Shown piece after piece: positions 11,669-13,992 of a DNA stretch of 64,000 bases. A program made the translations under genes and the position numbers. Location: the NCBI RefSeq assembly GCF_003018255.1, contig NZ_CP027440.1; one strand, 5' to 3'. The stretch is from Escherichia coli (GTDB lineage Bacteria; Pseudomonadota; Gammaproteobacteria; Enterobacterales; Enterobacteriaceae). Each line of letters begins with the position of its first letter. Positions within the stretch are counted from its first letter, which is position 1. The notes beneath the pieces are model-generated. The model was not told where the DNA came from, ran no database searches, and was given only the letters and a program-made list of their open reading frames with translations.

Positions 11669-13342
11669 ATGACTGAATCTTTTGCTCAACTCTTTGAAGA
11701 GTCCTTAAAAGAAATCGAAACCCGCCCGGGTTCTATCGTTCGTGGCGTTGTTGTTGCTATCGACAAAGACGTAGTACTGGTTGACGCTGGTCTGAAATCT
11801 GAGTCCGCCATCCCGGCTGAGCAGTTCAAAAACGCCCAGGGCGAGCTGGAAATCCAGGTAGGTGACGAAGTTGACGTTGCTCTGGACGCAGTAGAAGACG
11901 GCTTCGGTGAAACTCTGCTGTCCCGTGAGAAAGCTAAACGTCACGAAGCCTGGATCACGCTGGAAAAAGCTTACGAAGATGCTGAAACTGTTACCGGTGT
12001 TATCAACGGCAAAGTTAAGGGCGGCTTCACTGTTGAGCTGAACGGTATTCGTGCGTTCCTGCCAGGTTCTCTGGTAGACGTTCGTCCGGTGCGTGACACT
12101 CTGCACCTGGAAGGCAAAGAGCTTGAATTCAAAGTAATCAAGCTGGATCAGAAGCGCAACAACGTTGTTGTTTCTCGTCGTGCCGTTATCGAATCCGAAA
12201 ACAGCGCAGAGCGCGATCAGCTGCTGGAAAACCTGCAGGAAGGCATGGAAGTTAAAGGTATCGTTAAGAACCTCACTGACTACGGTGCATTCGTTGATCT
12301 GGGCGGCGTTGACGGCCTGCTGCACATCACTGACATGGCCTGGAAACGCGTTAAGCATCCGAGCGAAATCGTCAACGTGGGCGACGAAATCACTGTTAAA
12401 GTGCTGAAGTTCGACCGCGAACGTACCCGTGTATCCCTGGGCCTGAAACAGCTGGGCGAAGATCCGTGGGTAGCTATCGCTAAACGTTATCCGGAAGGTA
12501 CCAAACTGACTGGTCGCGTGACCAACCTGACCGACTACGGCTGCTTCGTTGAAATCGAAGAAGGCGTTGAAGGCCTGGTACACGTTTCCGAAATGGATTG
12601 GACCAACAAAAACATCCACCCGTCCAAAGTTGTTAACGTTGGCGATGTAGTGGAAGTTATGGTTCTGGATATCGACGAAGAACGTCGTCGTATCTCCCTG
12701 GGTCTGAAACAGTGCAAAGCTAACCCGTGGCAGCAGTTCGCGGAAACCCACAACAAGGGCGACCGTGTTGAAGGTAAAATCAAGTCTATCACTGACTTCG
12801 GTATCTTCATCGGCCTGGACGGCGGCATCGACGGCCTGGTTCACCTGTCTGACATCTCCTGGAACGTTGCAGGCGAAGAAGCAGTTCGTGAATACAAAAA
12901 AGGCGACGAAATCGCTGCAGTTGTTCTGCAGGTTGACGCAGAACGTGAACGTATCTCCCTGGGCGTTAAACAGCTCGCAGAAGATCCGTTCAACAACTGG
13001 GTTGCTCTGAACAAGAAAGGCGCTATCGTAACCGGTAAAGTAACTGCAGTTGACGCTAAAGGCGCAACCGTAGAACTGGCTGACGGCGTTGAAGGTTACC
13101 TGCGTGCTTCTGAAGCATCCCGTGACCGCGTTGAAGACGCTACCCTGGTTCTGAGCGTTGGCGACGAAGTTGAAGCTAAATTCACCGGCGTTGATCGTAA
13201 AAACCGCGCAATCAGCCTGTCTGTTCGTGCGAAAGACGAAGCTGACGAGAAAGATGCAATCGCAACTGTTAACAAACAGGAAGATGCAAACTTCTCCAAC
13301 AACGCAATGGCTGAAGCTTTCAAAGCAGCTAAAGGCGAGTAA
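11669..13342 (+). CDS. rpsA: 30S ribosomal protein S1
   Basis: 557-aa ORF with repeated S1 domains; matches RpsA; no strong Shine-Dalgarno upstream, as known for rpsA. Confidence 0.97.
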
Positions 13343-13352
13343 TTCTCTGACT

Positions 13353-13380
13353 CTTCGGGATTTTTATTCCGAAGTTTGTT
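13353..13380 (+). terminator. putative partial terminator after rpsA
   Basis: Hairpin cttcgg...ccgaag (13353-13374) followed by TTTGTT; weak U-tract, consistent with read-through into ihfB. Confidence 0.4.
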
Positions 13381-13388
13381 GAGTTTAC

Positions 13389-13417
13389 TTGACAGATTGC
13401 AGGTTTCGTCCTGTAAT
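13389..13417 (+). promoter_or_regulatory. candidate sigma70 promoter for ihfB
   Basis: TTGACA (13389-13394), 17-bp spacer, TGTAAT (13412-13417); read from sequence only. Confidence 0.4.
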
Positions 13418-13425
13418 CAAGCACT

Positions 13426-13447
13426 AAGGGCGGCTACGGCCGCCCTT
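13426..13447 (+). other. perfect 9-bp GC-rich stem-loop in the ihfB leader
   Basis: aagggcggc-tacg-gccgccctt; no U-tract follows, so not a classic terminator. Confidence 0.5.
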
Positions 13448-13501
13448 AATCAATGCAGCAACAGCAGCCGCTAAATTTGCCTTTAAGGAACCGGAGGAAT
13501 C

Positions 13502-13786
13502 ATGACCAAGTCAGAATTGATAGAAAGACTTGCCACCCAGCAATCGCACATTCCCGCCAAGACGGTTGAAGATGCAGTAAAAGAGATGCTGGAGCATATG
13601 GCCTCGACTCTTGCGCAGGGCGAGCGTATTGAAATCCGCGGTTTCGGCAGTTTCTCTTTGCACTACCGCGCACCACGTACCGGACGTAATCCGAAGACTG
13701 GCGATAAAGTAGAACTGGAAGGAAAATACGTTCCTCACTTTAAACCAGGTAAAGAACTGCGCGATCGCGCCAATATTTACGGTTAA
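13502..13786 (+). CDS. ihfB: integration host factor beta subunit
   Basis: 94-aa ORF; matches IhfB (HimD). Confidence 0.97.
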
Positions 13787-13815
13787 GTTTTTACTCAAAC
13801 TTGAACGCGAGAAAA

Positions 13816-13836
13816 GCACCTGTCGGGTGCTTTTTT
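13816..13836 (+). terminator. Rho-independent terminator of ihfB
   Basis: Hairpin gcacc-tgtcg-ggtgc followed by TTTTTT. Confidence 0.7.
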
Positions 13837-13992
13837 CATTTCTCTAATCTGGAACTGGAAGCAGCCTCGCAGAGTTTTGAACAGTTTTCACCCTCTCGTT
13901 AAATTCTTCTGAACGTGCCTCGGGGAACGCAAAACTCCCACCAGACAACCGCTCAACAAAGTTGCACACTTTCCATAAACAGGGAGGGGTGC

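Follow-up and report, generated by a model that had tools for sequence, protein, structure and literature searches.

A single hairpin lies at the 3′ end of rpsA mRNA and at the 5′ end of ihfB mRNA in Escherichia coli

In the 64,000-nucleotide stretch of Escherichia coli DNA analysed here (the window), a hairpin between rpsA and ihfB is both the 3′-terminal structure of the rpsA mRNA and the 5′-terminal structure of the monocistronic ihfB mRNA, as shown by published transcript maps, and rpsA–ihfB read-through RNA contains the same hairpin internally. We consider it probable that this single RNA structure serves the two overlapping transcription units, as a leaky terminator or exonuclease block for the first and as a 5′ cap for the second. 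The proteins concerned, IHF and S1, both act globally, and the linkage of their genes has been known since the 1980s.

A perfect hairpin in the rpsA–ihfB spacer

Window coordinates equal NC_000913.3 coordinates minus 950326, and the older v2 coordinates equal v3 minus 777, as checked on the gene coordinates of Kim 2012. The region 13300–13520 is found once in 5425 of 5426 complete E. coli genomes, and the window differs from MG1655 across it by one base, at 13473. The features of the locus are as follows.

11669–13342, plus strand: coding sequence of rpsA (ribosomal protein S1), from the open reading frame list and the RefSeq annotation of matching E. coli genomes
13353–13374, plus strand: first hairpin after rpsA, CTTCGGGAT-TTTT-ATTCCGAAG and then TTTGTT, a terminator-like site (−10.3 kcal/mol)
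13389–13394, plus strand: −35 hexamer TTGACA of ihfBp, read from the sequence and invariant in 10 Enterobacteriaceae genera
13395–13418, plus strand: inverted repeat GATTGCAGG-TTTCGT-CCTGTAATC, spanning the ihfBp spacer and −10 hexamer
13412–13417, plus strand: −10 hexamer TGTAAT of ihfBp, read from the sequence, with CTGTAATC invariant in 10 genera
13425–13426, plus strand: start of the monocistronic ihfB mRNA in three datasets, giving a 5′ UTR of 76–77 nt
13425–13448, plus strand: hairpin with a 10-bp stem and UACG loop, the end structure at the 3′ side of rpsA mRNA and the 5′ side of ihfB mRNA
13451, plus strand: RNA 3′ end at the C of ...CCCUUAAUC, from Term-seq and SMRT-Cappable-seq (963777)
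13473, plus strand: second 5′ end, 29 nt before the ihfB ATG, from Cappable-seq only (v2 963022, relative read score (RRS) 111.7)
13493–13497, plus strand: Shine-Dalgarno sequence GGAGG of ihfB, read from the sequence, with CCGGAGGAA invariant in the Enterobacteriaceae alignment
13502–13786, plus strand: coding sequence of ihfB (IHF beta subunit), from the open reading frame list and RefSeq annotation
13809–13837, plus strand: canonical intrinsic terminator of ihfB with a T tract (−16.3 kcal/mol), 3′ end at ~13839

The original prediction, made from the sequence alone, described a perfect stem-loop without a U tract, aagggcggc-tacg-gccgccctt, and it is read directly at 13426–13447; an extra closing pair, T13425–A13448, makes the stem 10 bp, one pair longer than had been noted. 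The full helix at 13425–13448 is therefore the perfect stem TAAGGGCGGC-UACG-GCCGCCCTTA, with 7 G–C pairs and the UACG tetraloop at 13435–13438. Folded alone it reaches −20.1 kcal/mol (z = −5.1), a stability equalled by 0 of 200 dinucleotide shuffles, and it is present in the minimum free energy and centroid folds of both of its contexts, the rpsA 3′ UTR and the ihfB 5′ UTR.

Its G+C-rich stem (within ~5–14 bp) and short loop are those of an intrinsic terminator. The 7–8-nt U-rich tract of such terminators is missing from the E. coli hairpin, which is followed directly by AATCAATGC, and TTAATCAA, counted from the end of the G+C core, holds 3 T in 8 nt; a terminator scan made no call there. The sole terminator-like site that the scanner found in the spacer is the first hairpin after rpsA (13353–13380 with its TTTGTT), at which no RNA 3′ end is seen by Term-seq (961969 to 963777) or in the SMRT-Cappable-seq table. 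In other Enterobacteriaceae a different hairpin occupies the position of this first hairpin, immediately before the −35 hexamer.

Counted over the whole window, there are 9 distinct perfect hairpins with stems of 9 bp or longer (20 entries including nested ones), against ~1.9 expected from shuffles. The others are mostly T-tailed terminators, and the rpsA–ihfB hairpin is unusual among them only by its missing T tail. A chance origin of the hairpin was rejected on the evidence. An Rfam 15 scan at a permissive threshold gave only sub-threshold terminator-like fragments and no family at its gathering score; the highest-scoring overlap, with part of the PhrS terminator region, reached 16.8 bits (E = 0.15), short of the gathering score of 37.

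The ihfB transcript begins on the hairpin

Upstream of the hairpin, the original prediction had pointed to a promoter-like TTGACA-N17-TGTAAT element. This is a working promoter with primary 5′ ends at 13425/13426 in three datasets; it is the curated ihfBp, already known and not a new find. Its −35 and −10 hexamers are separated by 17 nt, the −10 hexamer carries a G at the usually invariant position 2, and the mapped starts lie 7–8 nt downstream. A consensus promoter scan found nothing in the rpsA–ihfB spacer, as it demanded an A at −10 position 2; given the mapped starts, this miss was discarded as an argument against ihfBp. The RegulonDB promoter ihfBp has been cited as belonging to a pair of sigma-38 promoters, the only ones in which a −35 can be recognised, and a published sigma-38 holoenzyme genomic-SELEX peak lies at ~13385, in the spacer from rpsA to ihfB.

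5′-end mapping across the region had been proposed together with the prediction, and three published maps do place a transcript 5′ end on the stem. Kim 2012 gives the ihfB start as v2 962974, which is 13425, with a printed upstream sequence ending in ...TGTAATCAAGCACT. In Cappable-seq the start is v2 962975, or 13426, with an RRS of 364.9 and an enrichment score of 7.6, as strong as the main rpsA start (364.9 vs 318.6). SMRT-Cappable-seq lists a transcript 963751→964164, that is, one starting at 13425. The ihfB transcript thus begins at the first or second base of the stem, so that a primary transcript opens directly with a hairpin, as in a 5′-terminal protective stem-loop of the ompA type. 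In the predicted fold of 13425–13540 the hairpin is retained and the Shine-Dalgarno region is mostly open in the centroid.

Neither Kim 2012 nor SMRT-Cappable-seq lists the second 5′ end at 13473, which Cappable-seq gives as a strong primary end. It has no TAnnnT −10 element upstream, and a −10-like CTAAATT overlies the site instead of preceding it; of the sigma-70, sigma-S, sigma-28 and sigma-54 readings tried by eye for a promoter, none fits. Position 13473 is also the one place in the spacer where the window has an A and MG1655, like most E. coli, has a T. One preprint names a sigma-38 'ihfBp2'.

Several further sequence elements surround the start site. The inverted repeat at 13395–13418 (−13.3 kcal/mol, z = −7.6) is kept in 10 genera, with 84% of cells paired in the Enterobacteriaceae alignment and with changes from A-U to G-U; the Citrobacter version is a perfect 10-bp palindrome. 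Judged from its sequence, it could form a hairpin only in rpsA read-through RNA, or it could be a DNA operator across the −10 hexamer. The hairpin at 13425–13448 is flanked on both sides by AATCAA (13415–13420 and 13448–13453), which is the opening half of the IHF consensus WATCAANNNNTTR. Of the two copies, the upstream one runs into GCACTAA, with one mismatch to the full IHF consensus, and overlaps the −10 hexamer and the start site; the two copies may be relevant to the reported IHF autoregulation. In the ihfB 5′ UTR of Escherichia, a triplet-like run GCAGCAACAGCAGCC at 13455–13469 appears in the alignment as a ~7–9-nt insertion relative to other Enterobacteriaceae.

The rpsA transcript ends just past the hairpin

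The original prediction missed that the rpsA mRNA ends at the hairpin. In the Term-seq data of Adams et al. 2021, an RNA 3′ end lies at 963777(+), with 9925 reads in LB at OD 0.4 and 5221 on the second condition tab; on the third tab it is unlisted, though the adjacent ihfB terminator end is listed. This adjacent end maps to 964165 by Term-seq and to 964164 by SMRT-Cappable-seq. The 963777 end, labelled 'orphan' and placed 51 nt before the ihfB ATG, has a bicyclomycin-based Rho score of 1.34, which is not significant, and an intrinsic-terminator score of 14.4 against a threshold of 3. It is the sole 3′ end that Term-seq calls from the rpsA leader up to the terminator of ihfB.

SMRT-Cappable-seq, which captures whole primary transcripts, contains rpsA-only RNAs running 961720→963777 and 961861→963777, the latter coordinate being listed as 'novelTTS'. 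From the start at 961720, 109 reads stop at 963777, 67 pass through and 9 stop within the next 50 bp; from 961861, 38 stop and 15 pass through. Some 60–70% of full-length rpsA transcripts thus stop 3 nt after the hairpin and the remainder run toward ihfB, with a median read-through length of 149–192 nt. The end is therefore found by two methods with the precision of an intrinsic terminator's in vivo 3′ end, 3 nt past the full stem and 6 nt past its G+C core. The hairpin also has the makings of a U-poor protective 3′ stem-loop, being a stable stem-loop of low U content with a 3′ end directly downstream.

The 3′ end at 13451 was already listed in the two published tables, under the labels 'novelTTS' and 'orphan'. 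In the literature that we searched there was no discussion of the hairpin itself or of its double use, and no ihfB half-life or mutant data were found. Other leads were set aside: the rpsA 3′ terminus of the TRS paper is a premature stationary-phase end distinct from 13451, ProQ papers that name ihfB are irrelevant to the hairpin, and the 'ihfBp' matches in PMC4210603 are primer names.

Conservation and origin of the hairpin

We scanned for IhfB in one genome per species, giving 80 loci from Enterobacterales, Vibrionales, Aeromonas, Alteromonadales and Pseudomonas. Every spacer with rpsA upstream contains a strong hairpin (−11 to −29 kcal/mol by RNAfold). In 53 of 73 gammaproteobacterial rpsA–ihfB spacers, a perfect Watson-Crick stem beats dinucleotide shuffles at p ≤ 0.05; this metric leaves out G-U pairs and bulges and serves as an independent control for the alignment that follows. 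MAFFT placed 8 of 30 hairpins out of register, and these were dropped. The 22 kept, all with 4-nt loops, align without gaps and show 96.4% standard pairs with double changes at 10 of 10 pairs, a degree of pairing reached by 0 of 500 shuffles and falling to 33–57% when the partner is slid, although the set consists of the best hairpin per spacer and is hence partly circular.

The stem arms differ by genus: GGGCGGC/GCCGCCC in E. coli, GGGTGGC/GCCACCC in Pantoea, GAGCAAC/GTTGCTC in Pectobacterium, GATAACAC/GTGTTATC in Photorhabdus and AGGAGCC/GGCTCCT in Vibrio. Conservation of the stem, which had been proposed as a check on the prediction, holds at deep distance, where pairing is kept despite sequence change; as a 5′ end is mapped in the region too, the outcome named as refuting the prediction did not arise. 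The 8 core pairs are invariant inside Enterobacteriaceae, which leaves no covariation to be seen among these genera, an outcome that is neutral either way. At the scale of the species, 4763 of 5425 E. coli genomes share the same 76 nt at 13385–13460, and the SNPs of E. albertii and of two sampled variant E. coli strains fall outside the stem.

What follows the stem differs between lineages. In Vibrio, Aeromonas and some Pseudoalteromonas there are 6–8 T in the 8 nt past the G+C core, with 7–8 in Vibrio and Aeromonas, making a canonical terminator, and in most Enterobacterales, Shewanella and Photobacterium there are 1–5, with 3 in E. coli. The Aeromonas stem is that of E. coli, AAGGGCGGC/GCCGCCCTT, and TTTTTTAT comes after it. 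From its place in the spacer, the E. coli hairpin is the positional counterpart of the Vibrio and Aeromonas rpsA terminator.

These orthologues bear on how the end at 13451 arises. A tenable but doubtful alternative holds that there is no termination at all: every polymerase would enter ihfB, and the 13451 end would be left when a longer RNA is cut, with RNase E acting in the A/U-rich AAUCAAUG immediately past the hairpin as one example, or is terminated farther on, and is then trimmed back to the stem by PNPase or RNase II. The absence of a U tract, a 3′ end just 3 nt past the full stem, the fit to the U-poor protective stem-loops of Dar and Sorek (PMC6061677) and a median read-through of 149–192 nt, which suggests unstable downstream RNA, all speak for such trimming. 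However, the Rho score is not significant and the intrinsic-terminator model gives 14.4, the ihfB start codon 51 nt downstream leaves little untranslated RNA for Rho, and the orthologous hairpins of Vibrio and Aeromonas are canonical intrinsic terminators. From the lack of a Rho signal, the high terminator-model score, the T-tailed orthologues and the mere 51 nt of untranslated RNA before ihfB, we infer termination, rather than trimming, as the source of the end. Because the U tract is poor (3 of 8 T), stopping at 60–70% is high for a pure intrinsic terminator, and some or all of the 13451 ends could come from trimming or cleavage of a longer RNA.

The relation between hairpin and promoter also varies. 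In taxa with short spacers (60–100 nt) the hairpin lies 0–25 nt past the rpsA stop codon, and in Yersinia, Erwinia, Pantoea, Shewanella and others it stands right after the stop without TTGACA-N17-TGTAAT. In Escherichia, Citrobacter, Kluyvera, Pseudocitrobacter, Pseudescherichia, Superficieibacter and relatives, an extra block separates the rpsA stop from the hairpin and contains an upstream hairpin, CTTGACAG, the inverted repeat and CTGTAATC; the distance from the −10 hexamer to the stem is constant in 10 Enterobacteriaceae genera. The simplest history suggested by these comparisons is that an ancestral rpsA terminator lost its U tract and that one lineage then gained a promoter in front of it. 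Since short-spacer Enterobacterales have the hairpin without the TTGACA/TGTAAT block, the 5′-end role would be a later addition at best.

This order of events makes very unlikely the main reading of the original prediction, in which the hairpin is solely a 5′ stabiliser of ihfB RNA and the rpsA 3′ end is incidental. Such a reading accounts well for a transcription start on the first base of the stem and for the fixed spacing from −10 to stem in Enterobacteriaceae, but the hairpin predates the promoter block (Yersinia, Erwinia, Pantoea and Shewanella lack it), has a T-tailed terminator as its counterpart in Vibrio and Aeromonas, and carries the sole mapped E. coli rpsA 3′ end.

The pattern of change in the stem speaks to a further alternative, that the palindrome acts in DNA as an operator for a dimeric protein regulating ihfBp, for example by autoregulation, which we hold to be extremely unlikely. 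The ihfB promoter is reportedly autoregulated, a finding said to go back to Aviv et al. 1994. A perfect inverted repeat beginning at +1 of such a promoter, with AATCAA half-motifs on both flanks, would suit an operator, but the stem sequences are wholly different between genera while pairing is retained, and the RNA ends map exactly to the structure. The hairpin loops across taxa are UNCG or GNRA tetraloops (UACG, UUCG, GNRA), and the G-U pairs of Hafnia and Erwinia would be C-A on the opposite strand. Such G-U-compatible changes are sensible only in plus-strand RNA, and the loops are stable RNA tetraloops; both observations point to plus-strand RNA and away from a DNA operator.

Least credible of all is the idea, also raised in the original prediction, that RNase III or another endonuclease cuts here to split rpsA read-through from ihfB RNA and makes the ihfB 5′ end: there is a stable helix between two cistrons, and bicistronic and monocistronic RNAs both exist, but RNase III requires some two turns of helix, ~20 bp or more of continuous or nearly continuous double-stranded RNA, of which the 10-bp helix offers about half, the 5′ end is primary because it is enriched by Cappable-seq for triphosphates (enrichment score 7.6) and is properly spaced from a conserved promoter, and no 5′ end is reported inside the helix save a trace at v2 962984.

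The spacers of other taxa contain elements of their own. CGGTAG(TTT) is conserved ~2–8 nt past the hairpin in Yersinia, Rahnella, Hafnia, Edwardsiella, Photorhabdus, Proteus, Budvicia and Arsenophonus; Photobacterium has CGGTTATACT after the hairpin and Grimontia the related AGTTATACT. Conserved post-hairpin motifs are found in loci L016, L021–L026, L030–L032 and L041 (~2–8 nt after the hairpin) and in L035–L039. Going by sequence, these motifs, with CGGTAGTTT and CGGTTATACT as candidate −10 elements in other genera, may be the −10 of an ihfB promoter sited after, not before, the hairpin. The rpsA–ihfB spacer of Rosenbergiella (L027, L029) has two serial hairpins, the first U-less (GAGGGATGGTGACATCCCTC) and the second a canonical T-tailed terminator, AGCCAAGGGTG...CACTCTTGGCTTTTTTT. 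At the Pseudomonas and Halopseudomonas loci a conserved TATCAGGCTGTTCAAA...GTCAAGCATGGTAAAAC block precedes ihfB in place of the rpsA hairpin, and Pseudomonas neustonica (L059) carries tandem GCAGCTT repeats (GCTTGCAGCTTGCAGCTT...) ~110–150 nt upstream of ihfB.

A model for two overlapping transcription units

In the model that we favour, polymerases coming from rpsA would first cross the weak hairpin and the embedded ihfB promoter, after which a stable rpsA 3′ end would form 3 nt past the very stable, UNCG-looped stem. The hairpin would most likely act as a leaky intrinsic terminator with a decayed U tract (UUAAUCAAU) that also blocks 3′-to-5′ exonucleases, and about one third of polymerases would continue, giving rpsA–ihfB mRNA. 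The known promoter ihfBp fires at base 1 or 2 of the same stem, giving an ihfB mRNA with a fully paired triphosphate end.

If it behaves like ompA, papA and engineered leaders, the paired 5′ end should impede RppH and 5′-end-dependent RNase E, and we infer a stabilising effect of the hairpin at the ihfB 5′ end on this basis. Base pairing at the 5′ end is known to guard against RppH and RNase E, and RppH inactivation alters only ~10% of E. coli mRNAs, some mRNAs being indifferent to 5′ sequestration (PMC3997798); as only this fraction responds to RppH loss, and some do not heed sequestration, the 5′ role may be nil. For the 3′ end, U-poor stem-loops have been described as setting and shielding steady-state 3′ ends, and switching between terminator types via U content has been proposed (PMC6061677). 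As a corollary of the favoured model, if the hairpin terminates, polymerases from ihfBp should also stop, at +26, releasing a 26–27-nt RNA, which looks wasteful.

A stronger version, which we think rather unlikely, is that the arrangement has been selected as a unit. The hairpin would then set the S1:IHF-beta transcript ratio by halting the majority of rpsA polymerases, give ihfBp RNA a nuclease-resistant cap and attenuate ihfBp at +26, with release of a 26–27-nt hairpin RNA (13425/6–13451); this 'promoter inside a terminator' module would stem from the Escherichia–Citrobacter–Kluyvera lineage, in which the promoter block was inserted between the rpsA stop and the ancestral, U-decayed terminator.

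A hairpin shared by the end of rpsA and the start of ihfB explains the mix of mono- and bicistronic RNAs, and mutations in the stem and U tract would offer a handle on the S1:IHF-beta ratio or on the growth-phase switch of ihfB. The series from T-tailed (Vibrio, Aeromonas) to U-less (most Enterobacterales) to U-less with an embedded promoter (Escherichia and relatives) is a clean natural case of terminators drifting between types and getting re-used. This is an ordinary gene arrangement with no new type of element, and current understanding is not overturned by it; with the promoter and the 3′ end already published, the shared-hairpin arrangement and its evolutionary series are the modestly interesting part.

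Comparison with known systems

By analogy, the hairpin resembles three known things: an intercistronic attenuator or terminator, a 3′ protective stem-loop and a 5′-terminal stabilising stem-loop. Leaky intercistronic terminators are familiar from ribosomal-protein operons, as in T1 between rpsU and dnaG and the rplL–rpoB attenuator. The rpsA–ihfB hairpin shares with them a G+C-rich stem-loop after a highly expressed gene, precise ends and partial read-through into a less abundant downstream gene, and its published Rho score would agree with Rho independence. Unlike in those cases, its U tract is degenerate (UUAAUCAAU) and the promoter of the downstream gene lies upstream of the terminator, starting transcription on the first base of the stem.

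The U-poor stem-loops of Dar and Sorek (PMC6061677) are similarly stable and low in uridine, with a precise 3′ end immediately after them, and the switch in U content that those authors proposed is visible here between Aeromonas or Vibrio and Enterobacterales. Their class was, however, defined on Rho-dependent transcripts, whereas at rpsA–ihfB the Rho score falls short of significance and hardly any untranslated RNA follows on which Rho could act. REP and BIME elements are also G+C-rich intergenic palindromes able to stop exonucleases, but the rpsA–ihfB hairpin is a single-copy, perfect tetraloop hairpin; a REP element was rejected, since the hairpin has no REP consensus and, across 5425 E. 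coli genomes, occurs at a median of one place in each.

The 5′ stabilisers ompA hp1, papA and engineered bla leaders (Emory, Bouvet and Belasco 1992, in PMC3997798) have, like the ihfB mRNA, no unpaired 5′ nucleotides. Their geometry blocks RppH and the 5′ sensor of RNase E, and the hairpin, having the same position, may by analogy do likewise. Unlike them, the ihfB hairpin also forms the 3′ end of the preceding gene's mRNA, and in evolution it came before the promoter that places it at a 5′ end.
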